The notes under the pieces: model-generated
The model's input: the letters and a program-made list of their open reading frames with translations, nothing else
Databases searched by the model: none
What the model was told of the DNA's origin: nothing
In this document: positions 43,304 to 61,911 of the stretch, one piece after another
Layout of the letters: every line of letters begins with the position of its first letter
How positions within the stretch are numbered: the first letter of the stretch is position 1
Assembly (NCBI GenBank): GCA_963801355.1
Contig: CAWDEM010000004.1
Location: 1,568,001-1,632,000 of the forward strand
Direction: 5' to 3'
Source: Ignavibacteriota bacterium
Lineage (GTDB): Bacteria; Bacteroidota; Ignavibacteria; UBA10030; UBA6906
DNA: 64,000 nucleotides
Translations under genes and position numbers: made by a program

Positions 43304-43332
43304 TTGACTTCGTCGATCTTGTATCGTAAGTT
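43304..43332 (+). promoter_or_regulatory. sigma70-like promoter (TTGACT-N17-TAAGTT)
   Basis: Upstream of the response regulator start at 43379. Confidence 0.45.
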
Positions 43333-43378
43333 ATTGCGGGTTTACGTTGAAACTTTTCGAGAAGACAGGGGATCGAGA

Positions 43379-43792
43379 ATGGCTACGCCGCAGTCAATTG
43401 TGATCGTGGAAGACGAATGCATCGCCGCCGAAGATGTTCGTCGCCGCCTGGTATCGTGGGGGTACCGGGTTGCAGCGGTGGTGTCGACGGGAGAGGACGC
43501 AATCAGGTCGGCGGAACAGGCGCAGCCGGACCTCGTTCTCATGGACATCCATCTCAAGGGAAAAATGGATGGTGTGGAGGCAGGAGAATGTATTCGTTCG
43601 CGCCTCCACGTGCCGGTGATTTACGCGACTGCTTATAGCGACAGCGAAACCCTGTCGCGGGCGGGCGTGGACGATGCACTGGGGTATATCACCAAACCCT
43701 ACGACGATGTTGAAATGCGCGGTGCGATAGAACATGCGCTGTCCCGGCGGGAAGTCGAACTTCGCCTCCTGAGAAGTGCCATCGCGGTATAG
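43379..43792 (+). CDS. Stand-alone response regulator receiver protein
   Basis: IVEDE, DLVLMDI, TAY, YITKP. Confidence 0.88.
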   Translation: MATPQSIVIVEDECIAAEDVRRRLVSWGYRVAAVVSTGEDAIRSAEQAQPDLVLMDIHLKGKMDGVEAGECIRSRLHVPVIYATAYSDSETLSRAGVDDALGYITKPYDDVEMRGAIEHALSRREVELRLLRSAIAV

Positions 43793-45940: not shown

Positions 45941-47314
<1,374 letters not shown>

Positions 47315-47377: not shown

Positions 47378-48541
47378 CTAGCGCCGGAAGAACTCTCCGA
47401 CGATCATCTCATAGTCCCGGTCATCCATATCCTGGAGCAAGCCGGCATACACCTCGCCGCCGATCGGCGATGTACTGCCGTCGGGGTTGCGCCGGTTCAT
47501 CCTGGCGGTCAATGCCGTCAGACGTTCGATTTCTTCCTGGAAAAACGCGACTGCCGACTTCCCGATTTTCAACGACGGGATCTCCACATCCAGATGGTCG
47601 GCGTCGAGGACGCACATCCAATGCTCGGCATAGGGCGTCGCCTGCAGATCCTCGGGGTGTTTCGAGAGCGCGTTGTTCACCTGAATGACTTTTCCCGAGA
47701 CCGGAGCGAGGAACGGTATGGAGTGTTTTCCCTGTCGCACGGTGAAGAGAGGGGCGCTGCGTTGCACCGTCATTCCCAGGTTCGGGAGTTCGATGGTGTC
47801 CACCGTGCCGATCAACCGCCGGGCGAAGTCGTCGATGCCGACGCGGACCGTGCCGTCTTCAAATGTCGACGCCCACGTATGCCCGTCTGCGATGAAGACG
47901 CCCCCGGGGATGGCGAACTCATTGTTGCCGATCCCCTCCAGCGTCGCCACATGGGTAATGTGGACCTTCGGCTTCAGCTGTTTCGCAATCCGGTCCTGAC
48001 GCTTCAGAAGGATCTTCTTCACGAATGCGAGGAGCTCATCTTCGGTGAACGGCTTCTGCACATAGTCCATGGCGCCGTGCTTCATGCATTCAACCGCCGT
48101 CTCGACCGTGGCGTAACCGGTGATGATGACAACATCAATGTCCGGACGTATGTGCTTCACCGATTTCGTGACCTCCACACCGTCCATGGCCGGCATTTTG
48201 AGGTCGGTGAACACGAAGTCGTAGTGGTGGGACTGCAGGAGGCCGAGGGCCTCCTGGCCGGTCTGCACCGTGTCGATCGAGTAGCCGTCGAGCACCAGAA
48301 TCTTCCGGAAGCTGTCGAGGATTACTTCTTCGTCGTCGACGCAGAGGATCCGGGCCTTCGGCTGGTCGACTTCCGCCCGTTTCAGGCTCTTTGCTTCGCG
48401 GGTGAAGTCCAGCGAGAGGCTGACGGAGAGTGCATTCTCGCGTTCCTTCCGCAGCTTGTTCTCCTGCATGCGTCGTGACACCACGCGGATGAGGATGTCC
48501 GCTATGACGAAGACAATGACGGCGATAACAAACAGTAACAT
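47378..48541 (-). CDS. Membrane-anchored response regulator fused to a GcvH-like (lipoyl-carrier fold) domain
   Basis: N-terminal TM; receiver (VDDE, FTDLKMP, ITGY, VQKPF); C-terminal PGGVFIADGHTW...VRVGIDDFA...VRQGKHSIPFLAPVSGKVIQVN...PYAEHW. Confidence 0.88.
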   Translation of the reverse strand: MLLFVIAVIVFVIADILIRVVSRRMQENKLRKERENALSVSLSLDFTREAKSLKRAEVDQPKARILCVDDEEVILDSFRKILVLDGYSIDTVQTGQEALGLLQSHHYDFVFTDLKMPAMDGVEVTKSVKHIRPDIDVVIITGYATVETAVECMKHGAMDYVQKPFTEDELLAFVKKILLKRQDRIAKQLKPKVHITHVATLEGIGNNEFAIPGGVFIADGHTWASTFEDGTVRVGIDDFARRLIGTVDTIELPNLGMTVQRSAPLFTVRQGKHSIPFLAPVSGKVIQVNNALSKHPEDLQATPYAEHWMCVLDADHLDVEIPSLKIGKSAVAFFQEEIERLTALTARMNRRNPDGSTSPIGGEVYAGLLQDMDDRDYEMIVGEFFRR

Positions 48542-48562
48542 GGGAGGCCTCTCCTTAGTTGA

Positions 48563-49372
48563 TCACGTCAATGGATCAGAGCCGCATGGTTGCAGGCGTG
48601 CGAGTTCGTACTCAACGTCCGTCGGGATGGCGCGATACAGCCATCCGGTAAAATAGGGGTCCTTCTCGATGATGGCCGGGAAGGATTTCAATTCGGCGTT
48701 CACGTCCACCACCCGGCCGGAAATCGGCGAGAGTACCGGATGGAGCAGCCCGTCGGACGTCTGGATCTGGGCGCACACGGTTCCCTGGATGATTTCACCA
48801 TCGGGGTGAACGGTTTCCACCGCGGTGGGCTGTTCAATGGTCCGCACGAAGAGGTGGGTGACCCCGACGAGCGCCGTACCGTCGCCCTGCGGGCATACCC
48901 AGCTGGTGTAACCCAGCCGCCGGTACTTCGGCGGGCAGGGGACCACGAGTGTTCCGTCCTCCGTCGTGCCGGAGACCATGCGTGTTTGCTGCTCACGGAT
49001 CTGCCGGAAACGCAGAGCACGCTGGATCGCCGACTTTAGTTCATCGAAGGTGAAAGGTTTCGGAATGTAGTCTACCGCTCCGACAGTAAGAGCCTGCACG
49101 GCGTTCTCGACCGTGGAAAACCCGGTGGCCATGATGACGGGTGTTTCCGGCGCCTTCTTCAGGGCAAGTTTCAGAAACGAGAATCCATCCATCCCGGGCA
49201 TCATGACGTCGCAGAGGATGAGGCCGAAGGACTGCCGGTCAAGCAGAGGAACGGCGGATTCCGCGTCAAGGGAGGTGACAACACGGTATCCTTCCGATGT
49301 ACAGATTTTCGTCACCGCGTCAAGAATGACTTGTTCATCGTCGATGACCAGGATGTCTGTGTGTGGCTTCAT
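48563..49372 (-). CDS. Soluble response regulator fused to a GcvH-like domain
   Basis: Receiver (IDDE, LCDVMMP, ATGF, IPKPF); C-terminal ALVGVT...SPISGRVVDVN...IEKDPYFTGWLY. Confidence 0.86.
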   Translation of the reverse strand: MKPHTDILVIDDEQVILDAVTKICTSEGYRVVTSLDAESAVPLLDRQSFGLILCDVMMPGMDGFSFLKLALKKAPETPVIMATGFSTVENAVQALTVGAVDYIPKPFTFDELKSAIQRALRFRQIREQQTRMVSGTTEDGTLVVPCPPKYRRLGYTSWVCPQGDGTALVGVTHLFVRTIEQPTAVETVHPDGEIIQGTVCAQIQTSDGLLHPVLSPISGRVVDVNAELKSFPAIIEKDPYFTGWLYRAIPTDVEYELARLQPCGSDPLT

Positions 49373-49378
49373 GCCTGT

Positions 49379-51247
49379 CTACCGTGGCTGCTGGAGGGGA
49401 AGACGGATGTGGAATGTCGTTCCCTTCTTCGGTTCGCTCTCTACAGTGATGGTGCCGTTATGGTTGTCAATAATGCCCCAGATGACGGAAAGCCCCAGGC
49501 CGGTGCCTTTCTGTCCCTTCGTGGAAAAGAACGGCTCGAAAATTTTTGGAAGCTCCTCGCGTGATATGCCGCTTCCCGTGTCGGCCACGGTGATCTCGAC
49601 ATAGTCGCGCACTCCATCTCGCTCCACCGACTCCCACCTCTGCCAGTCGCACCCGAACCTGCTGCAGGCTTCCCATTTGCCCTGTCCCGCGACTTCTATC
49701 CAGAATGTGGCCGCGGCGCATTTCGGGCAGCGGACCTGCGTATCCATCAGCGAGACGCCGCACTCAGGACATTGCACCGTCATCTCCTGGTCGGGGGAGA
49801 GAGGGATGCTGGTCATGTGCTGGTGGCGGCCGTACAAGGGGTCTAGGTGGAGAATACCTTCTTCGTTCCCCGCACGCACTTTCACCCTGATCGACGGCAG
49901 ACCGTTGATTTTCACGGCCGGGTCGATCAGCGCGTGCCGCTTGCTGCACGCAGCCTTCTTTACGGATGCGGTTCCCTCCGGGGAGAGCTTGAGCAATGAA
50001 GAGCCAATGGTGATTGTGCCGCCCGCCTGCGGCATCGCATCGATCGCGTTCACGATGAGGTTGACGAAGACCTGCTGGATCTGGTTGGCGTCGACGGTGA
50101 CCGGCGGAAGCTGCGGGTCAATATTCTTGACCAGATCCACATGCCGGAGCGTCAGCTGGTTGCTGACGACTGTCGTGGCACGGTCTATGACATCGTTGAT
50201 CTGTGCTTCGGTCTTCTTGGGCACCGACTGCCGGGCGAAATCGAGCAGGCTCTTGACGATCTCCCGGCTCCGGAGGGTTTCCCGTACGATGACCTTGAGG
50301 TCTTCCTGCAGCTCCGGCTGATCCTGTGTGCGCTTCAGCAGAAAACTGCTGTAGGTCAGCACGCCGGTCAGCGGGTTGTTGATCTCATGAGCGACCCCGG
50401 CGGCAAGCCGTCCAAGGGACGCGAGTTTGTCCGATTGGAAGAGTTGCATCCGGGCTTCGGACAGTTTGGCGGTCATGTTATTGAACGAGCGTCCGAGCCG
50501 GCCGAGTTCGTCATTGCCTTCCCGGCTGATGTGGTAGCTGAGGTTGCCATCGGCGACCTGCTGGGTCCCCTTGACCAGTTCGGCCACCGGCCGGGCGACC
50601 CATCGCTGCACGAAGAAGGCGATGATCAGGCTCAGTGCAACAAAAGCACCTGCTGCGAAGAGCACCATCTCCAGCACACGGTCGCGGATCTGGCGATCGA
50701 CCTCTTGCAGCGGCATGGTTACATCAAGGACACCGAGCACCTTCACGTGTGCGGGGTGGACGTGGCAGTCGGCAGAGGAACAGGAGGTCTCGTTGTATAT
50801 GGGGTTGATGACCGCCAGGTACCGGTCCGTCTCTCCTACCGGCTGGAGCAGCCGGGTTCTCTGGTCGATGGTCAGGTGCTGCAGCGGAGGTGTGCTGGCA
50901 TGACAGGCGCGACAATTAGCAACCTCCTTCGGAAGAATGGTGCCCACGTCGGTCCCTACGGAGGAGAACATGACCTTCCCCTCCTTGTTCAGCACCCGCA
51001 CGTCGCCGATGCCGGACTGCTGGCCGATAGCGCTGATGGTTTCCTGGATACGGTCACGCTCGTTGCGGAGCATATCCAGCCTGGTGCTGTGCTTGACCGT
51101 CTCGGTCAGCTGGTTTGCGTGACGTTCCACCTCCGCGGACAAACTTGCGTTGAGAGCACGGATGTTGAAGAACGCAATGATCCCGATGATCACGATTGCC
51201 GTGATCCCGACCACGAGGATGAGTCTGACACCAATCCGCCGGATCAT
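49379..51247 (-). CDS. Sensor histidine kinase: periplasmic c-heme motifs, HAMP, HisKA, HATPase with a Cys-rich insertion
   Basis: 2 TM; CRACH and CSSADCH; AHEINNPL; NLIVNAIDAM; DTGSGI, FEPFFSTK, GTGLGL. Start probably MIRRIG at 51247. Confidence 0.92.
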   Translation of the reverse strand: MIRRIGVRLILVVGITAIVIIGIIAFFNIRALNASLSAEVERHANQLTETVKHSTRLDMLRNERDRIQETISAIGQQSGIGDVRVLNKEGKVMFSSVGTDVGTILPKEVANCRACHASTPPLQHLTIDQRTRLLQPVGETDRYLAVINPIYNETSCSSADCHVHPAHVKVLGVLDVTMPLQEVDRQIRDRVLEMVLFAAGAFVALSLIIAFFVQRWVARPVAELVKGTQQVADGNLSYHISREGNDELGRLGRSFNNMTAKLSEARMQLFQSDKLASLGRLAAGVAHEINNPLTGVLTYSSFLLKRTQDQPELQEDLKVIVRETLRSREIVKSLLDFARQSVPKKTEAQINDVIDRATTVVSNQLTLRHVDLVKNIDPQLPPVTVDANQIQQVFVNLIVNAIDAMPQAGGTITIGSSLLKLSPEGTASVKKAACSKRHALIDPAVKINGLPSIRVKVRAGNEEGILHLDPLYGRHQHMTSIPLSPDQEMTVQCPECGVSLMDTQVRCPKCAAATFWIEVAGQGKWEACSRFGCDWQRWESVERDGVRDYVEITVADTGSGISREELPKIFEPFFSTKGQKGTGLGLSVIWGIIDNHNGTITVESEPKKGTTFHIRLPLQQPR

Positions 51248-51263
51248 TGCGCAGGAGACCGTT

Positions 51264-52445
51264 CTATTTGTTGCCGACCGCACGTACGGAGCTGATCATC
51301 GTGCCCGGCCGTGCCGCCGGATAGCTCTTGTCGTCGTGACATCCCGCACAGGATGGCGCTGCAGCAAAATTCATCTCCGCGTGACAGGACTCACAGTCCA
51401 GCCCGCTGTGCGATGCATCGAGCCGCAACCCTGTGATTTGATGCTTGAACGATGCCGGCGTCCACCCTTTGTGACACGTCGTGCACTTGCGGTCAACTTT
51501 CGTGAAGCGTTTCTTGTCGCCGTGGCACTTCTGACAGGAGAGGTCGCGGTGGAAGCGATTCAGGGCCCAGCCGGAACTCCGTGCATGGTCGAATGCCGTC
51601 ATCGGCTTTGCGACGTGGCACGCCTCGCATTTGTCCGAACCATGGCAGGTGAAGCAGGGCTCATGCAGCTGCTCCATGGAAAGCTGTGTCTTCACTTCCC
51701 GCACCTTGGTGTCATCGGCTCTGCTCCTGTTCACGTCGTGGCACCGTACGCATCCTTCCTGCTGGTGGCAGTCGATGCATTCCAGCCCGAACCGTGTCGC
51801 GTGGTCGTCGTGGAAAAACGTCACAAACGAACCGTCCTCATTGCGAGTTGCATAATCCACTTTTGTGGGGAGTGGAACTCTGGGATGGGATTTGCCGGCC
51901 TCTGTGCGAGCACGCGTCATCTCCGCTTCAGTCTGCTCCTGGGATTTCTTTGTGTGACATCCGCTGCAGTCCGTTGTGTGTGTCCACTGCCGGTGACAAT
52001 CTATGCACTGCCGGTGATATGCACCCTTGAGATCAGGCATGCTGAGATCGGCACGGGCCCTCGACTTCGGGTGGCACTCACGGCAGGAGAGGATCCCCTG
52101 GGAGGTGCTGTTGTAGTGGTGGCAGCCATAGCATCCTCCCGACATCTCCGACATCTCGGCGTGCGCCTTGTGCGCGAAGACCACCGGACCATACTGGCCC
52201 GCCATGTCTCCCATGCGCAAGACTTCCGGGCCTGTCTCCCCCGTGGCATGGCCGGGGAGCATGCGCACACGCGGACAGTTCACGAGGCACGGGTCTGTCT
52301 TTGTTGGTTTCGGGCAGGCATGGCACGTCTGGCATGGCACATCCGGACGCTTCGGCGGTGCATGTTTTTCCCATTTGGATCCCTGGCCGAACGCGGACAG
52401 GGAAAGCAACGCGAGCGCTGTGAGACAATGAATCCAGAGTTTCAT
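51264..52445 (-). CDS. Multiheme cytochrome c (13 CxxCH), cytochrome c3-like repeats
   Basis: Signal peptide MKLWIH...AFG; 13 CxxCH counted; VVFAHKAH and VTFFHDDH distal-His motifs; ATGA overlap with the NrfD-family gene. Confidence 0.92.
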   Translation of the reverse strand: MKLWIHCLTALALLSLSAFGQGSKWEKHAPPKRPDVPCQTCHACPKPTKTDPCLVNCPRVRMLPGHATGETGPEVLRMGDMAGQYGPVVFAHKAHAEMSEMSGGCYGCHHYNSTSQGILSCRECHPKSRARADLSMPDLKGAYHRQCIDCHRQWTHTTDCSGCHTKKSQEQTEAEMTRARTEAGKSHPRVPLPTKVDYATRNEDGSFVTFFHDDHATRFGLECIDCHQQEGCVRCHDVNRSRADDTKVREVKTQLSMEQLHEPCFTCHGSDKCEACHVAKPMTAFDHARSSGWALNRFHRDLSCQKCHGDKKRFTKVDRKCTTCHKGWTPASFKHQITGLRLDASHSGLDCESCHAEMNFAAAPSCAGCHDDKSYPAARPGTMISSVRAVGNK

Positions 52446-53686
52446 GACTTTTCCGATCGAATGGCATATTTCGCTTGGATAGCCGGTCGGTCTTCCGGCA
52501 CGCTGATTACCGGGAATATCATGACGTATGCCCTGTACATAAGGGTCAGGAGAGAGATGAAGCCGACGGTCACCGAAATTTCCCCTATCGACGGGAGGTA
52601 GGGATGCAGGGCGTAGGGGGGTTGATACGCGACAATGAAGTTGTTGATCCGGTTCAACGCCACGCCGAACACGACGAGTGCCGCCGCGGTGAACGTCAAC
52701 GCAGGTGACCTGAGAACGGAAGGAGAGAGGAACATGCGCAACGGGATGACGACGCCTACCACCACTTCGATCGTCCACATCACACTTGCCGTATTCAGAT
52801 CCGCGAGATAGACGAATGTCTCACGGATAAACATATCGCCGAGCTTGAACGCGAGGTACACGCCCAGGATCGGTGCGACCATGCCGCCGAGTTTGCCCAG
52901 AATTTCGGTTTCCGGCTTGAGCTTGAATGACCGTGCGGCCAGGGTGGACTCGAAGATGACCATCGGGAATCCCACCGCTATGGCGGAAAGAAGAAAAAGC
53001 AGCGGGAGGATCGGAGTGAACCAGAGCGGGTGCATTTTCGCGCCGGAGATGACCATCAGCGTGCCGAGTGAGGATTGGTGGAGCGTCGAGAGAACGACAC
53101 CAGCGATAATGAAGACGAACATGGTCGTGTTGAGTCCGCGGTCGAGCACGCGGAGCAACCGGTCCACGGAACGATTGAGCCCCCTGAGGATGCCCGGGAG
53201 GTTCACCTTGCCGATAAACCGTTCGGTCACGAGAGGGATGAATTCGATATAGAGCACCGTCATGTAGATCATCACGCAGATACCGACCTCGAACAGGGCC
53301 GAGTTGCCGTTCCACATGATGAGGGGGTGCCAGATAAAATACCAGCGCCCGATGTCCACACAGACACCGATGGCGACGAATGTGTAACCCAGCATGGCTG
53401 TCAGCAGCGCGGGGCGGATGATGGCGTGGTACTCTTCCCGGTGCATGACGTGGCCGAGGGCGGCGGTCGTGAAGCCGCCTGCCGCGAGGGCAACACCGGC
53501 GCCGACGTCGACGGCGATCCAGAGTCCCCAGGGATACTGATCATTCAAGTTGGTCACGGCGCCGAGGCCGAAAAAGAATCGGCCGGCCAGGAACGCGATG
53601 CCGTTGACCGCCAGGAGGATCAAGACGATGACTCCCGGTGTGAGGAACTTGGCTTTGATCGGGGTTGGTGTCATGTGCGCTTCCAT
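52442..53686 (-). CDS. NrfD/PsrC-family integral membrane subunit (HybB/HmcC-like)
   Basis: GLGAVTNLNDQYPWGLWI, GVALAAGGF, DIGRW, SALFEV, LSTLHQSSLG. Confidence 0.92.
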   Translation of the reverse strand: MEAHMTPTPIKAKFLTPGVIVLILLAVNGIAFLAGRFFFGLGAVTNLNDQYPWGLWIAVDVGAGVALAAGGFTTAALGHVMHREEYHAIIRPALLTAMLGYTFVAIGVCVDIGRWYFIWHPLIMWNGNSALFEVGICVMIYMTVLYIEFIPLVTERFIGKVNLPGILRGLNRSVDRLLRVLDRGLNTTMFVFIIAGVVLSTLHQSSLGTLMVISGAKMHPLWFTPILPLLFLLSAIAVGFPMVIFESTLAARSFKLKPETEILGKLGGMVAPILGVYLAFKLGDMFIRETFVYLADLNTASVMWTIEVVVGVVIPLRMFLSPSVLRSPALTFTAAALVVFGVALNRINNFIVAYQPPYALHPYLPSIGEISVTVGFISLLTLMYRAYVMIFPVISVPEDRPAIQAKYAIRSEKS

Positions 53687-53688
53687 GC

Positions 53689-54579
53689 CTAGGCCTCCTC
53701 TTTCCGGGTTTTCGTCATCCACATGATTGCCCCGAGTATTGCATAGAGTGCGACGGGCGGGACAAAATACGCAAAGATGCCATGCTGGATGGCTTCCGAC
53801 ACGCCGGGAGCCGGAGTGGTACCGAGTTTTGGGAACTTCAGATCTGCAAAGTCGCGTCCGGCGAGGTACACCCATCCTGTTCCGCCGGCTTCGTACTCGC
53901 CGTACACGTGATTGACGTACTTGTCTCCGTATGTGATTAACCGCTGCTTGGCGATCCGGATAATTTCATCGCGGGGCCCGAACGTCAGGGCCTCGACCGG
54001 GCACGCATCCACACATGCGGGGAGTTTGTTCTCACTTGTCCGGACAATGCAGAAGTCACACTTCCGGATTTCGGGCTGAATGGCTTTATCGTATTCAAAT
54101 GAAGGGATCTGGAACGGGCAGGCTACCATACAGTACCGGCAGCCGATGCACATGTCCGTGTCCCAGATCACCGATCCGTTTTCCTGTTTCGAAAACGCGC
54201 CCACGATGCATGCAGAAACGCAGGCGGGGTGATCGCAGTGCATGCACTGGACTTTGACGAAGTACGGAAGATCGGCCTTTCTGGGATTGTCGTACTGATT
54301 GACGACGGTAAGGGCTCCCGAATCCGGACGCCGCATCTCCTTGAAGACCGACCTGTCGCCGTACATCTCGAGGGGTGGCGACGGCAGGTCATGAGCGGTG
54401 CGACAGGCGTATTCGCAACTTCTGCAGCCGATACACACCGTCGTATCCACGAGGACGCCATTCCGTTCCGGAGACAGAACGTTCTTCGGGTTTGCCTTTG
54501 CAGTTGCATTGAGCCCGGCAACAGTTCCGCCGGCCAGGGCAGCAGTCTTCAAGAAGGCCCGTCGACTCGGTAATTTCAT
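53689..54579 (-). CDS. Tat-exported 4x[4Fe-4S] electron-transfer subunit (HybA/HmcB-like)
   Basis: SRRAFLK Tat motif; CIGCRSCEYAC, CMHCDHPACVSAC, CIGCRYCMVACP, KCDFC...PACVDACP; C-terminal TM. Confidence 0.92.
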   Translation of the reverse strand: MKLPSRRAFLKTAALAGGTVAGLNATAKANPKNVLSPERNGVLVDTTVCIGCRSCEYACRTAHDLPSPPLEMYGDRSVFKEMRRPDSGALTVVNQYDNPRKADLPYFVKVQCMHCDHPACVSACIVGAFSKQENGSVIWDTDMCIGCRYCMVACPFQIPSFEYDKAIQPEIRKCDFCIVRTSENKLPACVDACPVEALTFGPRDEIIRIAKQRLITYGDKYVNHVYGEYEAGGTGWVYLAGRDFADLKFPKLGTTPAPGVSEAIQHGIFAYFVPPVALYAILGAIMWMTKTRKEEA

Positions 54580-54622
54580 AGGTGGTCCTTGCAGGATTGA
54601 ACAGCACTGACGCGCTCAACTC

Positions 54623-54637
54623 TCAAAACTTGAGCCA
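54623..54637 (-). promoter_or_regulatory. sigma54-like -24/-12 element (TGGCTCAAGTTTTGA)
   Basis: GG-N10-GA spacing, 44 bp upstream of the Fe-S gene. Confidence 0.5.
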
Positions 54638-54708
54638 CAAACCAGTGAGCGAATGTGTTCAAATATCCAAGAAATCGGCGGAAAAACGGGCAAACCCGCA
54701 GCTCCCCT

Positions 54709-54754
54709 TTCCTAAAATGAGGAAAAAGTGAACAGCTATTCCCAGTTGTGGGAA
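54709..54754. promoter_or_regulatory. Two TTCC-N8-GGAA palindromes (putative enhancer/UAS)
   Basis: TTCCTAAAATGAGGAA (54709) and TTCCCAGTTGTGGGAA (54739), 30 bp apart, between divergent promoters. Confidence 0.5.
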
Positions 54755-54793
54755 AATTGGGCCATTTTCGCCTTCTCTTCTGCGGCATTCCCA

Positions 54794-54808
54794 TGGCACG
54801 ATTTGTGA
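54794..54808 (+). promoter_or_regulatory. sigma54-like -24/-12 element (TGGCACGATTTGTGA)
   Basis: TGGCACG followed by GG-N10-GA spacing, upstream of the NtrC-type gene. Confidence 0.45.
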
Positions 54809-54865
54809 CTTCGCAAAGCTGAGTGATTTCAGCCGTTTGCAGTCTCAGACGATTGGAATGAGTGA

Positions 54866-56230
54866 ATGAAAAAAGAAGAACTCGGCATTCTGGTCGTGGA
54901 CGACGAGTTCATTGTCCGCGAGTCGCTCACCAAGTGGTTCCGTGAAGATGGGTTCCGGGTCGATGCTGCTCCTGACGGGTTCACTGCGCTGAAGAAGCTC
55001 CAGACTGAACCGTGGAACCTGGTTCTCACTGATATCAGAATGCCCGGCATGGATGGACTGGAACTCCTGCATCGCGTCAAGCGGATAAGCCCCCAGAGCG
55101 TGGTCATCATTGTGACGGCGTTCGCCACGGTCGAAACCGCGGTGCGCGCATTGAAGGAAGGTGCGTACGACTACATCACGAAACCGATAGATCCGGATTA
55201 CCTCAACCATATTGTCATCAATGCGCTGGAGCAACAGCAGCTGGTGCTGGAGAACCAGCGACTGCGCAACGCCGTGAGCGAGCTGACGGCCGACTCCGCG
55301 ATCATCGGTGAGTGCGCCGAGATGCGCCGCGCGATCGAGCTCGTGGAAACGGTCGCTCCGGCGGAGACCACGGTGCTGATTACCGGGGAGAATGGAACGG
55401 GCAAGGAGTTCGTGGCGCGGGCCATTCACCAGGCGAGTGCGCGGCGCTTTTCTCCGCTGATAACCGTCAGCTGCGGTTCTCTCGGCGAGCTTCCTATGGT
55501 GGACGAACTGTTCGGCCACGAAGCAGGGGCCTATCCGGGCGCACAGCAAATGCAAAAAGGGAAGATCGAACTGGCCGATGGCGGTTCTGTATTCCTGGAC
55601 GACATCGGGAGGCTCGATCTGAAAGCCCAGGCAGAGCTCTTGCGCTCGCTGGAGATGAAGCACATTATCCGCCTCGGTGGTGTGGATCCGATCAATGTCA
55701 GCGTCAGACTGCTCTGCGCCAGCCAGGAAGATCTCGAGAAGGCGGTGCACGAGGGACGGTTCAGAGAAGATCTCTACTATCGCCTGACGGTCTTTGAGAT
55801 CATGCTCCCGCCGCTGCGGGCGAGGCGGGGTGATGTGGCAGCACTTGCTCACTTCTTTCTGGGCAAGTATGCGCGCGCTATGAACCGTAAGATGCAGGGG
55901 TTTTCACCGGAGGCAATGCTCGCTCTCAAGGCATATGCATGGCCCGGCAACGTGCGAGAACTCCAGAACGTCATCGAGCGTGCCCTGGTCGTGGCACGGG
56001 GTCCGATGATAGAACGGGAACACCTCATCCTGCACACAGATACCGCATCACCCACGACGGGAAAACGGCTCGAAGATATGGAACGAGCGCATATTGCAGT
56101 CATCCTGCGTGAAACCGGATGGAATATCAGCCGCAGCGCCTCAATCCTGGACATCGACCGTGTCACACTCTACCATAAGATCGAGAGATACGGATTGAAA
56201 CGGCAGGCGCAGCCGGCACCTCTCCGTTGA
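54866..56230 (+). CDS. NtrC/AtoC-family response regulator (receiver, AAA+, Fis HTH)
   Basis: VDDE, LTDIRMP; GENGTGKE; ELFGHEAGAYPGA; FLDDIG; RFREDLYYRL; WPGNVREL; HTH. Confidence 0.93.
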   Translation: MKKEELGILVVDDEFIVRESLTKWFREDGFRVDAAPDGFTALKKLQTEPWNLVLTDIRMPGMDGLELLHRVKRISPQSVVIIVTAFATVETAVRALKEGAYDYITKPIDPDYLNHIVINALEQQQLVLENQRLRNAVSELTADSAIIGECAEMRRAIELVETVAPAETTVLITGENGTGKEFVARAIHQASARRFSPLITVSCGSLGELPMVDELFGHEAGAYPGAQQMQKGKIELADGGSVFLDDIGRLDLKAQAELLRSLEMKHIIRLGGVDPINVSVRLLCASQEDLEKAVHEGRFREDLYYRLTVFEIMLPPLRARRGDVAALAHFFLGKYARAMNRKMQGFSPEAMLALKAYAWPGNVRELQNVIERALVVARGPMIEREHLILHTDTASPTTGKRLEDMERAHIAVILRETGWNISRSASILDIDRVTLYHKIERYGLKRQAQPAPLR

Positions 56231-56294: not shown

Positions 56295-57692
56295 ATGGCA
56301 CAGTCACAGTACGACATCGTTGTGCTCGGGGGGGGGCCCGGGGGCTACACCGCAGCAATACGCGCCGCCCGGCTCGGCCTCCATACTGCTATCATCGAAC
56401 GCGAACGCCTCGGTGGTGTGTGTCTCAACTGGGGCTGCATCCCTACCAAAGCCCTTCTTCGGAATGCGGAAGTGTACCGCCTGATCCGCTCAGCGGCGGA
56501 TTGGGGGATCTCCGCAGAGAATGTCCGCCTCGACTTCCCGCAGGTGATCAAGCGCAGCCGCGGGATCGCGGACCGCGTCTCCAAAGGCGTCGAGTACTTG
56601 ATGAAGAAGAACAAAATCGACTCCATCCGCGGATCGGGGCGCCTTCTTTCGGGCGAAACGGTTGAAGTGCGGGCGGAAGGGAAAGCGACGACGTCTGTCA
56701 AGGCAAGGCACATCATCGTCGCAACCGGCGCCCGACCCCGGTCCCTCCCGGGCGTTACTATCGACCGCAAGCGGATCATTACCAGTACGGAGGCCATGGC
56801 GCTTCCGGAGCAGCCTGCTTCCATGGTGATTATCGGAGCGGGGGCGATCGGCATCGAGTTCGCCTCGTTCTACAACGACATCGGGACAAAGGTCACCGTC
56901 GTGGAAATGATGCCGGCCATTCTGCCCATCGAGGACAAGGAACTGACCAAAGCGCTGGAAGCGAGTTTACGTAAGCAGGGGATTCAGTTCCTTACCGAGA
57001 CACGCGTGGAAAGCGCGACCACCGGGCCCGACAAAGTCACCGTGACGGTACAAAATGCTGCGGGAACGCAAGAGCTGACTGCAGATGTTGCACTGGTGGC
57101 CGTCGGCGTTCAGGGGAATGTGGAAAGCATCGGGCTCGAATCGCTCGGTGTGAAAGTGGAACGGGGGCATATCGTCGTGGACAAGAACTACCGGAGCTCC
57201 GTTCCCGGTGTGTTCGCCGTTGGTGATGTGATCGGCCCTCCCTGGCTGGCGCACGTTGCTTCCGCAGAAGGAGTGTTTTGCGTGGAGAGCATTGCCGGCC
57301 GCAACCCCGAGCCGCTGGACTACTCCACCATACCCGGTTGTACCTATTGCCGACCCCAGCTTGCAAGTGTGGGATTCACCGAAGAGATGGCGGTGGCTGA
57401 GGGGTATGAAGTCAAGGTGGGCCGATGCCCCTTCCGGCCCATGGGGAAGGCGGTTGCGATGGGCGAGACCGAAGGGATGGTCAAGCTTGTGTTTGACGCA
57501 AAGTACGGCGAGCTGCTCGGCGCACACATCCTCGGCTCCGAGGCGACAGAAATGATCGCTGAGCTCGTGCTCGCCAAGAAGCTGGAAGCAACGGGGCAGG
57601 ACATTTTCCGGACGATCCACGCTCACCCGACACTGAGTGAGGCAGTGATGGAGGCGGCGGCTGCAGCATACGGCGAGGCAATAAACATTTGA
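56295..57692 (+). CDS. lpdA: Dihydrolipoyl dehydrogenase (E3)
   Basis: GGGPGGY, GGVCLNWGCIPTK, IGAGAIG, HAHPTLSE. Confidence 0.96.
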   Translation: MAQSQYDIVVLGGGPGGYTAAIRAARLGLHTAIIERERLGGVCLNWGCIPTKALLRNAEVYRLIRSAADWGISAENVRLDFPQVIKRSRGIADRVSKGVEYLMKKNKIDSIRGSGRLLSGETVEVRAEGKATTSVKARHIIVATGARPRSLPGVTIDRKRIITSTEAMALPEQPASMVIIGAGAIGIEFASFYNDIGTKVTVVEMMPAILPIEDKELTKALEASLRKQGIQFLTETRVESATTGPDKVTVTVQNAAGTQELTADVALVAVGVQGNVESIGLESLGVKVERGHIVVDKNYRSSVPGVFAVGDVIGPPWLAHVASAEGVFCVESIAGRNPEPLDYSTIPGCTYCRPQLASVGFTEEMAVAEGYEVKVGRCPFRPMGKAVAMGETEGMVKLVFDAKYGELLGAHILGSEATEMIAELVLAKKLEATGQDIFRTIHAHPTLSEAVMEAAAAAYGEAINI

Positions 57693-58417
57693 CGGCACAG
57701 TCGGAAGCGCACGGCATCGAGGTGGTACGATTGGGTCGGTCGGCGTACCGTGCATGCCTGGCGCTCCAGCGTCATCTGCAGGAGCGCCGGATCGCCGGCA
57801 CCATCGGCGATGTCCTTCTGCTCACCGAGCATGATCCGGTGCTCACGCTGGGGACCACCGCAAATGCCGACCATCTCCTCTCTTCTCCGGAGGTGCTCTC
57901 CCGTGAAGGACTGGATGTTGTAGAAGTTGAACGGGGGGGCGATATCACCTTCCATGGACCGGGCCAGCTGGTCGGGTATCCCGTTTTCGATTTGACGCAG
58001 CACACACCGGATCTTCACCGATACCTCCGCCAGCTCGAAGATCTGGTAATCGGGACCCTTGCGGCATTCGGCGTCCGCGCGTCTCGTGTCGAGGGATACA
58101 CCGGCGTCTGGGTGGGAGGCGAGAAGATTTGTGCGATCGGCATACACGTGCGCCGCTGGGTCACGATGCACGGCTTCGCACTGAATATCAACACCGATCT
58201 GTCGTACTTCCGCCATATCATTCCCTGCGGGATTTTTGAACGGGGTGTAACGTCGCTGGCAGAAATTCTGGGACGGCGTGTCCCGTTGACCGAAGTGGAG
58301 GACGCGCTGCTGGGTGTGTGTGCGCGTGTATTTCTGAGAACCGTCCACGAGACTACATGTAAGGAACTTGGGATAGACAGTGACTCTCTCCAACGACAGG
58401 ATGCTGTGTGCCTATAA
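57689..58417 (+). CDS. lipB: Octanoyltransferase
   Basis: EHDPVLTLG, RGGDITFHGPGQLVGYP, KICAIG, HGFALN, IIPCG. Confidence 0.95.
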   Translation: MTAQSEAHGIEVVRLGRSAYRACLALQRHLQERRIAGTIGDVLLLTEHDPVLTLGTTANADHLLSSPEVLSREGLDVVEVERGGDITFHGPGQLVGYPVFDLTQHTPDLHRYLRQLEDLVIGTLAAFGVRASRVEGYTGVWVGGEKICAIGIHVRRWVTMHGFALNINTDLSYFRHIIPCGIFERGVTSLAEILGRRVPLTEVEDALLGVCARVFLRTVHETTCKELGIDSDSLQRQDAVCL

Positions 58418-60389
58418 GACGGTGCTCACCGCCCGTTTGATCGATACAAAGATCCTCGTCCTGCTGAAGCAGGGCAAAGCCTTCTTTCATATCGGCTGTT
58501 CCGGGCACGAAGTGGCACAGGTGGCCGCTGCCGCGGCAATGCGTCCCGGGCACGACTGGGCCTACCCGTATTACCGCGATCTTGCGTTTGCCCTCCAGTA
58601 CGGGTACACCATTGACGATGCGATACGCGAAGCCATGCACCGTCGCGGCGGTCCCGGCAGCAACGGCTTCAGCATGATGGGCCATTATGGCAAGAGGGAT
58701 CTTCGTATTGTTGCGCAATCGAGTCCGACAGGGACGCAATATCTGCAGGCGGTGGGAACCGCCATGGGAGCTGTTCTTGAAAAGAACGATGAAGTTGTCT
58801 ATGTCTCATCCGGGGAGGGAGCAACCAGCGAAGGGGAGTTTCACGAAGCGGTGAATTGGGCGGCGCGTGACAGGCTGCCGGTGGTTTTCCTTATCGAAAA
58901 CAACAGGTACGCGATCTCCGTACCGGTGACGGATCAGGTTGCAGGGGGGTCGGTGGCAAAGATGGTGCGGGGGTACGAAGGACTTGCCGCCCGCTGCGTG
59001 GATGGGTGCGATTACCCGGTCATGTTTCAGGCTGCGGAAGAGGCGGTCAACCGGGCCCGGAGGGGAGAAGGCCCGACACTCATTGAAGCCCAGGTGGTGC
59101 GGCTCCTTGCGCATTCGTCATCGGATGACCAGAGGAAATACCGCGATGCGGGGGATCTGGAAGAGGATCTGCGTCGGGACCCGCTGCCGCGTTTTGAGCG
59201 ATTGTTGTTGGAGAGTGGAGCCGTTACTTCAAACGACATCGCGCGGCTGAAGGCGGAATTGCAGAGCGAGATAGACCGCGTTGCGAAAGACGTGGAAACC
59301 CTCCCTGTTCCCGATCCGGCGGAGGTTGATCGTTTCGTGTACTCTCCGGGACGCATCGTGGCCTCTGACGGGTTCGTTGAGCCCGAGCATACAGGTCCGA
59401 AAATCGTCCTCGTGGATGCCGTAAACCACGCGCTTGCCGAAGAGCTGGAGCGCAACCCCGGAATGCTCGTGTACGGCGAAGACGTCGGCCGCGGAAAAGG
59501 CGGCGTCTTTACCGCCACAAAAGGCCTCACGGAGAAGTTCGGCGAGGAGCGGGTGTTCAACTCGCCGCTGGCTGAGGCGAGCATCGTCGGGACGGCGTTC
59601 GGACTCGCGGTGCGCGGCACGTTCAAGCCGGTTGTGGAGATCCAGTTCGGCGACTACATCTGGCCGGCCTTCATGCAGATCCGTGACGAGATCGCCATGT
59701 TGCGTTATCGCTCGTACAACACCTGGACATGTCCGATGGTGATCCGGGTGGCAGTGGGAGGATACATCCACGGCGGCCTCTATCATAGTCAGTCCATTGA
59801 CGGCTTCTTCACGCACATTCCCGGTATCCGTGTGGTGTTCCCATCGACGGCGGCCGACGCAAAGGGACTCCTGAAGACTGCCTGCCGGGAAGACGACCCG
59901 GTGCTCTTCCTGGAGCACAAAGGGTTGTACCGTCAGGGCTTTGCCTCTTCGCCGGAACCTTCCTCCGAGTATCTCCTGCCATTCGGCATTGCCAAGATCC
60001 GGAAACCGGGGGACGATATCACCGTCATCACCTGGGGCATGCTCGTGCAGCGTTCGCTTGATGCCGCGCGCGCGGTTGAGGAGCGGCTCGGCCTCAGTGT
60101 GGAGGTGATTGATCTCCGGACGTTGAATCCACTGGACAAGGACACGGTCTTGACTTCCGTGCGCAAGACCGGAAAAGTGCTGATCGTCCACGAAGATACG
60201 TTGACCGGTGGGTTCGGCGGCGAGATAGCGGCAATCATTGCGGAGGAAGCATTCGAACGGCTCGATGCGCCCGTGGTCCGGGTCGCCGCGAAGGATTCTC
60301 CCGTACCCTATGCGCCGCCACTGGAGTACGCCATGCTTCCCCAGGAAGCAGATGTCATGCGGGCGCTGGAAAAGCTCGCGCGGTACTGA
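58380..60389 (+). CDS. 2-oxoacid dehydrogenase E1, fused alpha/beta (branched-chain type likely)
   Basis: GHE, PYYRD, GEGATSEGEFHE...ENN TPP motif, HSSSDD; beta part GEDV, FNSPLAE, EIQFGDY, YHSQ. Confidence 0.9.
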   Translation: MTLSNDRMLCAYKTVLTARLIDTKILVLLKQGKAFFHIGCSGHEVAQVAAAAAMRPGHDWAYPYYRDLAFALQYGYTIDDAIREAMHRRGGPGSNGFSMMGHYGKRDLRIVAQSSPTGTQYLQAVGTAMGAVLEKNDEVVYVSSGEGATSEGEFHEAVNWAARDRLPVVFLIENNRYAISVPVTDQVAGGSVAKMVRGYEGLAARCVDGCDYPVMFQAAEEAVNRARRGEGPTLIEAQVVRLLAHSSSDDQRKYRDAGDLEEDLRRDPLPRFERLLLESGAVTSNDIARLKAELQSEIDRVAKDVETLPVPDPAEVDRFVYSPGRIVASDGFVEPEHTGPKIVLVDAVNHALAEELERNPGMLVYGEDVGRGKGGVFTATKGLTEKFGEERVFNSPLAEASIVGTAFGLAVRGTFKPVVEIQFGDYIWPAFMQIRDEIAMLRYRSYNTWTCPMVIRVAVGGYIHGGLYHSQSIDGFFTHIPGIRVVFPSTAADAKGLLKTACREDDPVLFLEHKGLYRQGFASSPEPSSEYLLPFGIAKIRKPGDDITVITWGMLVQRSLDAARAVEERLGLSVEVIDLRTLNPLDKDTVLTSVRKTGKVLIVHEDTLTGGFGGEIAAIIAEEAFERLDAPVVRVAAKDSPVPYAPPLEYAMLPQEADVMRALEKLARY

Positions 60390-60423
60390 GAGTACCTATT
60401 TCTCAACTTCATGGAGTCCGATG

Positions 60424-61911
60424 ATGGCACGGATCGAAGTGGTCATGCCACAGATGGGAGAGAGCATTACCGAGGGGACGATTGTCAAGTGGCACAAGAA
60501 GGTGGGCGATCAGGTGAAACTGGATGAGACGCTCCTGGAAATCAGCACAGACAAAGTTGATTCGGAGATTCCATCGCCGGGCGCCGGTGTGCTTGCGGAG
60601 ATCGTGGTCGGCGAGCAACAGACCGTGCCCGTTCGCACCGTGATCGCCTATCTCGAGAGCGAGGCCACCCAGGGTCAGCCGGTCCCGGTCGGGGCCCCAC
60701 CGGCTCCTGCGAAGACTCTTTCGGTCCCGGGGGAAACCGCGCAGCCGGTCGTCCCCGGAGAAACCGCACCGCCGGTTGTCCCGGGGGGAACCGCACCGCC
60801 GGTCGTCCCGGGGGGAACCGCACCGCCGGTCGTCCCGAAGATTGTGCATCCGGAAGGGAGATTCTATTCCCCGCTGGTGTTAAGTATTGCGCGGACCGAG
60901 GGGCTTCCGCTCGAGGAACTCGGACGCGTGCCCGGATCCGGGGAGGGAGGGCGCGTCTCCAAGAGAGATATTCTGGCGTATCTTGCACAGCGGCGGCAGA
61001 CTCCGGAAGTGAAATTGCAGGAACGCCCTGCGCCCGGGAGCGAGGCGGAGACACCGCAGGCGCCTCCGGTTGCGCCGCCTGATGCGTCCCCGGGTGCGCC
61101 GCCTGATGCGTCCCCGGGTGCGCCGCCTGATGCGTCCCCGGGTGCGACGCCTGATGCGTCCCCGGGTGCGTTGCCAGACGCGTCCCGGGGTGCGCCGCCG
61201 GATGGAACGCAGGCCTCCGATGTTGAGCGAATCCCGATGAGTGTCCTTGTTCAGAAGATGGCGCAGCACATGGTGAACAGTGTGCGGACCTCGCCTCACG
61301 TTGCCGCGGTGCATGAAGTGGATATGACCGCTGTTGTGCGCCACCGGGATATGCACGCGGCGGAGTTCGAGCGCCGCGAAGGGTTCAAGCTGACATTCAC
61401 ACCCTACATTGTCCATGCGGTGTCGCAGGCGCTGAAAAAGTATCCGTTGATGAACAGCTCAATCGATGGCACCACCATTATCCGGAAGAAGTCCATCAAT
61501 ATCGGTCTCGCGGTGGCGGCCGAGAACGGTCTGATTGTTCCCGTGATTAAGAATACCGGAGACCAGGACATCACCGGCATTGCCCGCTCCGTGCATGATC
61601 TTGTCGAACGGACACGAATCCGGAAGCTCAAGCCCGACGAGGTCCAGGGAGGCACATTTACGATCTCCAATTACGGAGTCTTCGGCACTCTCATTGGCAC
61701 GCCGATTATCAACCAGCCGCAGATTGCCATACTTGGAACCGGAATGATTCAGAAGCGGGTGGTCGCGATCGATGACGGGATCGCGATCAGGTCGATGGCG
61801 TACTTCACGATGTCGTTTGATCACCGGGTGGTGGATGGCAACCTGGGCGGTATGTTTCTGGATCAGGTGGTGAAGAACCTGCAGGGCATCGATCCTGCGA
61901 TGACGATCTAG
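60424..61911 (+). CDS. 2-oxoacid dehydrogenase E2 (dihydrolipoamide acyltransferase)
   Basis: MPQMGESITEG, lipoyl-Lys ISTDKVDSE, E3-binding SPLV...GSGEGGRV, catalytic DHRVVDG. Confidence 0.93.
   Translation: MARIEVVMPQMGESITEGTIVKWHKKVGDQVKLDETLLEISTDKVDSEIPSPGAGVLAEIVVGEQQTVPVRTVIAYLESEATQGQPVPVGAPPAPAKTLSVPGETAQPVVPGETAPPVVPGGTAPPVVPGGTAPPVVPKIVHPEGRFYSPLVLSIARTEGLPLEELGRVPGSGEGGRVSKRDILAYLAQRRQTPEVKLQERPAPGSEAETPQAPPVAPPDASPGAPPDASPGAPPDASPGATPDASPGALPDASRGAPPDGTQASDVERIPMSVLVQKMAQHMVNSVRTSPHVAAVHEVDMTAVVRHRDMHAAEFERREGFKLTFTPYIVHAVSQALKKYPLMNSSIDGTTIIRKKSINIGLAVAAENGLIVPVIKNTGDQDITGIARSVHDLVERTRIRKLKPDEVQGGTFTISNYGVFGTLIGTPIINQPQIAILGTGMIQKRVVAIDDGIAIRSMAYFTMSFDHRVVDGNLGGMFLDQVVKNLQGIDPAMTI
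60724..60837 (+). repeat. In-frame 27-bp tandem repeat x4 in E2 linker 1 (VPGETAPPV)
   Basis: Units at 60724, 60751, 60778 and 60805. Confidence 0.9.
61072..61203 (+). repeat. In-frame 24-bp tandem repeat x5.5 in E2 linker 2 (APPDASPG)
   Basis: Units from 61072 in 24-bp steps. Confidence 0.9.

Follow-up and report, generated by a model that had tools for sequence, protein, structure and literature searches.

To our knowledge, two-component systems are almost invariably taken to be switches of genes. Some response regulators, such as CheY, CpdR and RssB, act through protein binding and not through DNA binding, and Rrf1 of D. vulgaris, whose gene accompanies an Hmc-type HmcB/HmcC module, is a response regulator said to regulate hmc expression. 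A cofactor-free lipoyl-like fold occurs within membrane respiratory complexes, in the N-terminal barrel-sandwich hybrid domains of NqrA and RnfC (PF05896, PF13375). In the portions available of its description, LbpA is a lipoate-binding GcvH-like protein of an Hdr-like sulfur-oxidation system (PMC6067878). Finally, a module composed of a tail-anchored FeS protein, a HybB/NrfD-like subunit and a periplasmic cytochrome is presented, in the available portions of the source, as having flanking genes that are not conserved (PMC10924467 / 10.1101/2023.11.02.564894).

We analysed a stretch of 64,000 nucleotides from an Ignavibacteriota bacterium (the window), in which two consecutive response regulators end in a domain resembling the glycine cleavage H protein (GcvH). 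An earlier note on this DNA knew of no function for such an output. This assessment stands, as these proteins are not described in the literature searched on REC+GcvH, on GcvH-like+NrfD and on Ignavibacterium/Melioribacter. The Melioribacter genome paper, in its available portions, contains a sole mention, that of an ‘NrfCD cluster’ (Mros1571-1572).

Two response regulators with a GcvH fold

The membrane-anchored regulator, TM-REC-GcvH (47378..48541, minus strand), was characterized through Pfam, AlphaFold2, VIA-align and an alignment of 73 sequences. Its 387 aa comprise an N-terminal membrane helix, a receiver (65-174), a GcvH fold (approx. 208-341) and a C-terminal extension (342-387). Pfam recognizes Response_reg at 65-174 (E 5.6e-31) and GCV_H at 220-330 (E 4.2e-19; 69.1 bits versus a cut-off of 22.2), and the AlphaFold2 model (pLDDT 83.5, pTM 0.55) displays a helix at 2-43; D15 and R19 of the membrane helix are invariant in the alignment. 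The soluble regulator, REC-GcvH (48563..49372, minus strand; 269 aa), was analysed with Pfam, AlphaFold2, Foldseek and an alignment of 72 sequences. It displays Response_reg at 7-117 (E 4.7e-29) and GCV_H at 156-255 (E 2.2e-14; 53.8 bits versus 22.2), its model reaching a pLDDT of 90.6 and a pTM of 0.88. The Pfam domains and the modelled helix are thus those of the architectures described in the earlier note. Its mention of an intact phosphoacceptor Asp, Thr and Lys extends to the homologues as well: D69, D70, D113, T141 and K163 of TM-REC-GcvH are invariant (n=73 sequences), and so are D11, D12, D55, T83 and K105 of REC-GcvH (n=72 sequences), the phospho-acceptors being D113 (codon 48203-48205) and D55 (codon 49208-49210), respectively.

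Both C-terminal domains superpose on solved H-proteins, in agreement with their earlier assignment to the GcvH fold. Residues 209-341 of the TM-REC-GcvH model match the pea H-protein 1dxm_A (VIA-align: Z 18.6, rmsd 1.4 Å, 131 residues aligned; when the whole model is submitted, the match list is taken up by receivers), and the GcvH domain of REC-GcvH matches the E. coli H-protein 3a8i_E (Foldseek: TM 0.84 on the target, rmsd 1.7 Å, 119 columns). A look-up in the ESM Atlas returned ‘glycine cleavage H’ clusters only, at 0.81-0.85. The NCBIfam GcvH model NF002270 scores 73.9 bits on TM-REC-GcvH, below its cut-off of 117, and is absent from the best 25 NCBIfam families for REC-GcvH.

The GcvH fold of both regulators is without a conserved lipoyl-lysine. 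As the earlier note had read from the sequence, TM-REC-GcvH has a lysine at the lipoylation position, without the Glu-Ser flank: HMMER alignments to the H-proteins 1onl_A and 3a8i_E place K272 (codon 47726..47728, minus strand) in the lipoyl-lysine column. The conservation of this residue, a check that the note had proposed, turned out to be poor. Lys272 is kept in 9 of the 73 homologues, Gln or Met replacing it already in relatives at 86% and 83% identity, and the residue that follows is R in 61, K in 8 and H in 4 of them. The wider GcvH-like family described below has Lys in this column in 10 of 156 domains, and homologues of REC-GcvH have Gly in 52 and Lys in 1 of 72. The glycine reported at this position in the soluble protein itself depends on the alignment: a gap-free alignment from the downstream Pro does put Gly208 in the lipoyl column, whereas HMMER aligns the protein to this column with a one-residue gap. 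The window, which lies on contig C4, is indeed free from gcvP and gcvT, as previously noted. The single GCV_T match of the genome and a full-length gcvP (one GDC-P match among the matches listed for the genome) are on contig C8, where a canonical gcvH (126 aa, 156 bits) sits beside gcvP.

In REC-GcvH, C146 and H211 are invariant, and C200 and C263 almost so, in the 72-sequence alignment. A CCHC metal site formed by these four residues was considered. Judging from the strand register of the model, C200 and H211 are probably not neighbours in the hairpin, and the idea was abandoned on this ground.

The six-gene unit and the wider family

The two regulators end a unit of six genes, all on the minus strand, in the order Tat-exported HmcB-like FeS protein, NrfD/HmcC-like subunit, 13-haem cytochrome c, kinase, REC-GcvH and TM-REC-GcvH. 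The HmcB/HybA-like 4Fe-4S protein (53689..54579; Pfam Fer4_11, NCBIfam HmcB) carries a twin-arginine signal (SRRAFLK) and a C-terminal membrane anchor. The NrfD/HmcC/HybB-like integral membrane quinone-interacting subunit (52442..53686, start codon uncertain) was identified from Pfam NrfD, from NCBIfam (HybB 341 bits and HmcC 266 bits, both under cut-off) and from co-occurrence. The periplasmic multihaem cytochrome c (51264..52445), of 393 aa counted from the signal-peptide Met, was assigned from Pfam Cytochrom_CIII / Cytochrome_C7, its motif count (13 CxxCH) and its conserved position. The sensor histidine kinase (49379..51283; HAMP-HisKA-HATPase), recognized through Pfam, conservation in 66 sequences and gene position, contains in its periplasmic domain a CxxCH (124-128) and a Cx4CH (168-174), both invariant (n=66 sequences), and its ATPase domain holds a Cys-rich insertion (C446, H450, C505xxC508, C519xxC522, C540). 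With regard to the HmcABCDEF criteria, scores stay below the cut-offs for HmcA (59 bits versus 400), HmcB (317 versus 420) and HmcC (266 versus 550), and HmcA is a 16-haem cytochrome, for 13 CxxCH motifs in the window. The module is Hmc-like, not Hmc.

The layout of this unit was followed in 80 loci fetched from Ignavibacteriota-type genomes. REC-GcvH then TM-REC-GcvH was retrieved in 79 of 79 testable loci, the kinase gene comes immediately before REC-GcvH in 73 of 73, and HmcB, NrfD and cytochrome precede the regulators in 61 of 63. In the two exceptions (L019 and L050), the HmcB/NrfD pair is more divergent and a further TM-REC-GcvH paralogue is present. The related loci include records titled Ignavibacterium album and Melioribacter roseus. 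Across 301 genomes of the same phylum, an NrfD orthologue was detected in 20, TM-REC-GcvH in 19 and both in 18, the two genes lying approximately 4-5 kb apart on one contig (places listed for all but G168); in the two genomes with NrfD only, the contig ends 2.5-2.8 kb away from this gene. Linkage to the NrfD-type membrane complex nearby, for which the earlier note had suggested a check of the neighbourhood, is strictly conserved. From gene content and order, the two proteins would be the regulators of a dedicated two-component system that forms part of the Hmc-like quinone/FeS/13-haem cytochrome c module, an assignment to which we give an even chance.

The same fold is also found without receivers. 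A phmmer search with the GcvH and C-extension part of TM-REC-GcvH against 1.84 billion representatives gave 4349 matches at E<=1e-3 and 1290 at E<=1e-10, the best of which span approximately residues 10-190 of the 192-residue query, that is, GcvH fold plus C-extension. Among the best 150 matches, 106 have a length of 181-260 aa, the N-terminus being hydrophobic in 91 of these, and 14 have the length of receiver-fused proteins (341-450 aa), domains having been scanned in only part of these 14. The commonest form of this Lys-less GcvH-like family is approximately 230 aa long and has a membrane helix at its N-terminus, in which an acidic residue is conserved: among the 93 representatives with a membrane anchor, 74 have D or E at residue 17, and the window protein has its invariant D15. 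No paper on this membrane-anchored family was found in the literature searched.

Receiver-less forms were located at 71 loci, from Poribacteria, Methylomirabilota, Chromatiales, Deferrimicrobiaceae, Acidobacteriota, Gemmatimonadota and others. An NrfD gene adjoins them in 54 of the 71 and an HmcB-like FeS gene in 57, the usual order being GcvH-like / FeS / NrfD / GcvH-like (the ‘G-F-N-G’ module). The genome scan for receiver-less forms used a 9-row alignment. In the window's own genome, another contig carries a Qrc-like cluster ending in NrfD, followed by a 277-aa TM GcvH-like protein. Receiver-fused forms occur in Ignavibacteriota and, judging from the names of the sources, in KSB1 and Chloroflexota too. 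The soluble regulator was considered as the equivalent of the downstream GcvH-like protein of G-F-N-G and rejected, as its profile scores below the TM-type profile on 64 of 64 upstream and 38 of 38 downstream GcvH-like ORFs. Given these lower scores, and as it is devoid of the C-terminal extension typical of the family, its relation to the GcvH-like accessory proteins appears looser.

Proposed role and competing explanations

As they always come with a haem-sensing kinase and with a membrane module for electron transport, the regulators probably tune respiration directly, rather than switching genes. They may be phosphorylation-controlled accessory subunits of a quinone-linked respiratory module, a reading that we hold to be evenly balanced and whose target is suggested by the gene neighbourhood. 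The kinase would use its own haems to sense the state, redox or ligand, of the pool of periplasmic cytochromes, and would phosphorylate the receivers of both REC-GcvH and TM-REC-GcvH. Phosphorylation would shift the seating of the GcvH-like domains, one tethered via its helix and the other soluble, on the NrfD-type subunit, at its cytoplasmic or membrane face, or on a partner brought to that place. Through this phosphorylation-dependent seating, the electron flow or energy coupling of the module would be adjusted post-translationally, with neither DNA binding nor lipoate involved. Two observations speak against this reading. The HmcB-like FeS protein (Tat signal) and the cytochrome are periplasmic, which leaves the NrfD-like subunit and membrane helices as the sole possible contacts of the cytoplasmic GcvH domains, and the soluble regulator is only loosely related to the accessory proteins.

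What emerges is a strictly conserved two-component system ending in a cofactor-less H-protein fold, and in many phyla this fold, devoid of receivers, is encoded alongside quinone-linked FeS/NrfD modules. More tentatively, and at somewhat less than an even chance, the Lys-less GcvH fold may represent a class of cytoplasmic subunit, hitherto unrecognised, that regulates or gates NrfD-type quinone modules in many phyla. In Ignavibacteriota, where it is fused to receivers, a haem-sensing kinase could then turn the respiratory complex on or off, or move it from one coupling mode to another, in a matter of seconds and without transcription. In a bolder variant, the invariant His211 of REC-GcvH, beside the former lipoyl site, could join phosphotransfer between the two receivers. 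If the fold is a regulatory subunit, it would offer a direct and fast route from periplasmic redox sensing to the control of a respiratory complex and, if this is true, a role could be assigned to thousands of genes annotated ‘glycine cleavage system H protein’. For the annotation of metagenomes, GCV_H matches are unsafe as evidence of glycine cleavage or lipoate metabolism. With cultured carriers (I. album, M. roseus) among the related loci, the idea is bench-testable.

Other explanations have to be weighed against this direct action on the respiratory module. Indirect control of transcription, or a phosphate sink, seems unlikely: the output of the haem kinase would here be a DNA-binding regulator (e.g. 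NtrC-type), and the REC-GcvH pair would drain or buffer phosphate, or partner-switch that activator. A divergent sigma-54-dependent NtrC-type response regulator (54866..56230, plus strand; Pfam) is indeed present beside the unit and, in the window as in L001 and L005, it has no adjoining kinase of its own, which is consistent with such a scheme. However, most of the 80 loci are without an NtrC-type gene within reach (it was retrieved in about 13 of them at at least 45% identity), and a second kinase of its own accompanies it in 10 loci. Where this regulator exists, often with its own kinase, the embedded system is free for another task. The 54580-54865 intergenic region contains two sigma-54 -24/-12 near-matches (54623-54637, minus strand; 54794-54808, plus strand), but near-matches are at chance frequency in the window (74 found versus 67 expected), and a sigma-54 promoter was not retained. 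A mere sink, in addition, needs no two strongly conserved, distinct outputs (mean column identity 63% in REC-GcvH and 71% in TM-REC-GcvH).

Directly after the NtrC-type gene lies an E3 / LipB-type / E1 / E2 / LipA operon (56295-62805), overlooked in the earlier note. Its presence is consistent with Lys-less GcvH domains mimicking the H-protein, i.e. binding E3, LipB/LplA, LipA and GcvP/T phospho-dependently and coupling respiratory redox to 2-oxoacid/glycine oxidation. E3 follows NtrC also in L001, L005 and L006 (with LipB in two of these), and a glutamate dehydrogenase gene is found after TM-REC-GcvH in 5 of the 80 loci. We nevertheless consider this mimicry improbable. The 2-oxoacid dehydrogenase/lipoylation neighbourhood is limited to the three closest of the 80 related loci; the E3 side was not found in L011, L022 and L052, where room existed, and the NtrC/E3 side is absent from most of the 80. 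Moreover, the family is linked to FeS/NrfD genes in the other phyla. The coupling to lipoate metabolism proposed in the earlier note has in its favour the operon adjoining the cluster, an arrangement seen in these closest relatives only. In the window's own lineage, this operon and the glutamate dehydrogenase gene flank the cluster and would also fit a metabolic target, which speaks against the respiratory reading.

A role in assembly or maturation is likewise doubtful. GcvH-like chaperones would bind the NrfD-type subunit, or its partners, while these are being inserted, and the receivers would time assembly and not activity. The neighbourhood evidence is the same as for regulation of the assembled complex, and small accessory proteins that have a membrane anchor and are encoded next to respiratory operons often serve in assembly; a haem-sensing kinase with two regulators nevertheless seems elaborate for assembly. 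Least credible of all is a lipoyl or sulfur/redox carrier, as envisaged in the earlier note, with the TM protein lipoylated on Lys272 and shuttling reducing equivalents or lipoate under phospho-control and the soluble protein as decoy: the fold is intact, K272 falls exactly in the lipoyl-lysine column and genes for a LipB-type transferase, LipA and E3 are 8-14 kb away within the window, yet this reading fails on the rarity of the lysine in homologues and in the wider family, its loss at 83-86% identity, the absent Glu-Ser context, the scores under the NCBIfam GcvH cut-off and the canonical gcvH adjoining gcvP elsewhere in the genome.

Comparison with known systems

With GcvH (PF01597, TIGR00527), the regulators share the fold over the whole domain, and the His-x-Trp and Pro-x-Ser-Gly motifs are kept. 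They differ in being without a conserved lipoyl-lysine, fused to receivers, below the NCBIfam cut-off and without gcvP/gcvT linkage, one of them also carrying a membrane helix and a C-terminal extension. The likeness to NqrA and RnfC is more distant: weak Pfam NQRA matches were detected in several homologues and RnfC_N in one fusion protein, but these matches are weak or sub-cut-off, GCV_H is better everywhere and no Nqr/Rnf genes are near.

Like CheY, CpdR and RssB, the two regulators combine a full phospho-acceptor set with an output that is neither a DNA-binding nor an enzymatic domain. Unlike them, their output is a GcvH fold, one member is membrane-tethered and the presumed target is a respiratory complex; no response regulator with such a target was found in the literature searched. 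Rrf1 was considered as a possible GcvH-fused relative and not retained. The sole true hmc operon readable past hmcC, in a Desulfobacula MAG (L162; HmcA 574 bits), has downstream a receiver-only ORF of approximately 140 aa with no GcvH-like match, a comparison that bears on this one operon.

As far as the available portions of its description go, LbpA resembles the window proteins as a GcvH-like protein recruited to a respiratory/redox complex instead of glycine cleavage (PMC6067878), whereas in the window proteins the lysine is not conserved and the linkage is to NrfD/FeS/cytochrome genes. The module of PMC10924467, judged from the portions available, is matched by the three upstream genes, with their Tat signal, C-terminal anchor, NrfD-like partner and multihaem cytochrome; in contrast to that module, the flank is fixed in Ignavibacteriota-type genomes and consists of the kinase and the two GcvH regulators.

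The Lys-less proteins of the G-F-N-G module share with TM-REC-GcvH a helix with an acidic residue, the C-extension, FeS/NrfD neighbours and a Gln-Gly-x-Arg hairpin where the lipoyl-lysine would be. TM-REC-GcvH differs from them by a receiver inserted between the helix and the GcvH fold and, compared with the module as a whole, the unit of the window adds a soluble receiver-GcvH protein and a dedicated haem kinase.

Composition and conservation of the unit

Upstream of the two receiver-GcvH regulators, namely the soluble REC-GcvH (269 aa; 48563–49372) and the membrane-anchored TM-REC-GcvH (387 aa; 47378–48541, minus strand), lie four genes on the same strand. They encode an HmcB/HybA-like FeS protein that carries a twin-arginine signal and is anchored by its C-terminus, an NrfD/HmcC/HybB-like membrane subunit, a cytochrome c bearing 13 CxxCH motifs and a histidine kinase (49379–51283, minus strand). 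Across 66 kinase sequences, both CxxCH and Cx4CH are invariant in the periplasmic domain, and a conserved Cys-rich insertion (CxxC...CxxC plus C446, H450 and C540) lies within the ATPase domain.

This six-gene signalling unit is real and strictly conserved. Indeed, in 80 related loci (43–91% identity), nearly all titled Ignavibacteria, Ignavibacteriales, Melioribacter or Bacteroidota/Bacteroidetes and a handful only ‘bacterium’, REC-GcvH is followed by TM-REC-GcvH in 79/79 cases where the contig permits a test, the kinase precedes them in 73/73, and the HmcB, NrfD and cytochrome genes come before these in 61/63; in the two exceptions (L019 and L050), the HmcB/NrfD pair is more divergent and an additional TM-REC-GcvH paralogue is present. 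Among 301 sampled genomes of the phylum, an NrfD orthologue was detected in 20, the TM regulator in 19 and both in 18. Where the positions of both genes are listed (all but genome G168), a single contig carries them, separated by about 4–5 kb, and in the two NrfD-only genomes the NrfD gene is 2.5–2.8 kb from a contig end. The order kept in 61 loci and the co-occurrence in 18 genomes bear out the linkage to membrane redox genes.

A second HmcB/NrfD pair adjoins the main cluster in some Ignavibacteria genomes. It comes with the further TM-REC-GcvH paralogue (51–54% identity) in L019 and L050, and with a receiver-less TM-GcvH protein (23–28% identity) in L008, L014, L015, L024, L028, L031, L069 and L073; in L078, a divergent pair directly follows the main TM regulator, and no further GcvH-like ORF was detected there.

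Architecture and fold of the regulators

Pfam identifies a receiver and a GCV_H domain in both ORFs, preceded in the TM regulator by a hydrophobic helix, with all matches scoring well over the Pfam cut-offs. AlphaFold2 models, built from alignments of 72 (soluble) and 73 (TM) rows, are confident (pLDDT 90.6 and 83.5, respectively), and solved H-proteins superpose with the C-terminal domains of both regulators (E. coli: TM-score 0.84, rmsd 1.7 Å; pea: Z 18.6, rmsd 1.4 Å, 131 residues). The architecture read by the earlier note from the sequence is thus confirmed, and the fold mismatch that it had named as fatal was not found. The active-site residues of the receivers do not vary in either family (72 and 73 sequences), and neither regulator has a DNA-binding or enzymatic output domain. 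CheY and RssB are regulators acting by protein binding, and by analogy the two proteins presumably act likewise.

The window also encodes a stand-alone receiver-domain protein (162 aa; 43304–43792, plus strand), flanked by a membrane protein of 331 aa and a lipoprotein-like ORF of 215 aa; L005 and L006 have homologues of these in the corresponding neighbourhood.

The output domain in other bacteria

Searching 1.84 billion representatives with the segment that comprises the GcvH domain and the C-terminal extension (192 aa) returned 4349 proteins at E ≤ 1e-3, 1290 of them at E ≤ 1e-10. Among the best 150, 106 measured 181–260 aa (91 of those with a hydrophobic N-terminus), and 14, only part of which were covered by the domain scan, had the receiver-fused length of 341–450 aa. 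By source names, receiver-fused forms also exist in KSB1 and Chloroflexota. Helix residue 17 is Asp or Glu in 74 of 93 anchored representatives, and Asp15 of the window protein is invariant.

Of 71 receiver-less loci (Poribacteria, Methylomirabilota, Thermodesulfobacteriota, Chromatiales, Alphaproteobacteria, Deferrimicrobiaceae, Acidobacteriota, Gemmatimonadota and others), 54 have an NrfD gene beside the GcvH-like one, and 57 have an HmcB-like FeS gene there. These genes usually run GcvH-like, FeS, NrfD and second GcvH-like, an arrangement also found upstream in many Ignavibacteria loci. Two types of second GcvH-like protein occur: in one the N-terminus is Cys-rich (C..WM.AG...YK.C.....C..C), and the other has a different membrane helix. 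Of 58 FeS proteins of this module, 32 show no twin-arginine motif. The soluble regulator lacks the C-terminal extension of the wider family, and profile comparison found no special likeness between it and the module's second GcvH-like protein.

The organism's own genome holds a further GcvH-like protein next to NrfD (contig C8, about 2.009–2.023 Mb). A Qrc-like cluster there encodes a cytochrome c7-like protein, a molybdopterin-family protein (read as two ORFs), an FeS protein and NrfD, after which comes a membrane protein of 277 aa that combines a Cys-rich stretch with a GcvH-like domain. The cluster is adjoined by a divergent gene for an NtrC-type regulator. Two matches of the search, P0271 and P0377, are natural fusions: a protein of 1391 aa in which three Lys-less GcvH domains are joined to an FAD-linked oxidase, a 4Fe-4S dicluster and two CCG domains, and one of 386 aa that joins a GcvH-like to a cytochrome c7 domain.

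Proposed working, alternatives and known systems

The best reading, to which we give an even chance on gene-context grounds, would be direct control of the respiratory module. The kinase would sense the periplasmic redox state, phosphorylation would change the contacts of both GcvH-like domains with the NrfD-type subunit or with a membrane partner, and the module would be tuned post-translationally. A dedicated haem-c-motif kinase, two phosphorylatable regulators and an output fold that elsewhere is a membrane-anchored neighbour of NrfD/FeS modules point to such redox sensing and membrane engagement. The soluble regulator, with neither the family's extension nor a special likeness to the second GcvH-like protein, is a weak point of this reading. 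Both regulators may instead be assembly factors rather than subunits.

An H-protein mimic acting on lipoate-dependent enzymes deserves mention, as genes for E3 dihydrolipoamide dehydrogenase, a LipB/LplA-type lipoyl transferase, a fused E1, an E2 with lipoyl domain and LipA (56295–62805, plus strand) directly follow the divergent NtrC-type gene, and a glutamate dehydrogenase gene (45941–47281, minus strand) comes 96 bases after that of the TM regulator, on its strand. However, such neighbours are confined to the closest relatives: E3 follows NtrC in L001, L005 and L006 (with LipB in two of these), glutamate dehydrogenase recurs only in L001, L002, L005, L006 and L022 among the 80 loci, and E3 is missing after NtrC from L011, L022 and L052, where room sufficed. 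Of the couplings proposed in the earlier note, that to the membrane redox complex would be the likelier, and the lipoate interpretation is not supported. In the window's lineage, the NtrC-type protein may mediate indirect transcriptional control, but its gene is absent from most of the 80 loci, is accompanied by its own kinase in 10, and intergenic sigma-54-like motifs do not exceed chance.

The lysine data contradict a lipoyl-carrier role for the TM regulator. Lys272 (codon 47726–47728) does fall exactly in the lipoyl-lysine column (HMMER alignment to PDB H-proteins) and the soluble regulator has Gly there, as the earlier note had it, but this column holds Asn in 25, Thr in 18 and Lys in only nine of 73 TM homologues (60–91% identity), the rest having other residues; Gln or Met replaces Lys272 already at 86% and 83% identity. 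The following residue is Arg in 61, Lys in eight and His in four. Gly occupies the position in 52/72 soluble homologues (Lys in one), and Lys is found in 10/156 domains of the 150 best wider-family representatives. As the position drifts, it is not a conserved cofactor site, and the idea of one modifiable carrier and one decoy is left unsupported. The genome has an ordinary 126-aa gcvH adjoining gcvP on another contig, with gcvT elsewhere.

Full-text searches of main texts turned up no paper on receiver-GcvH proteins or on GcvH-like partners of NrfD, in agreement with the earlier note, which knew of no function for such an output; the unit is apparently undescribed so far. Both regulators share the fold of GcvH, but without its defining conserved lysine, family score or partners. 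Their sole likeness to LbpA is that of GcvH-like proteins tied to a redox system. The one true hmc operon read has downstream only a small receiver-only ORF. PMC10924467 describes a tail-anchored FeS/HybB-like/cytochrome module, for which it reports no conserved flanks, and the three upstream genes of the unit fit it.
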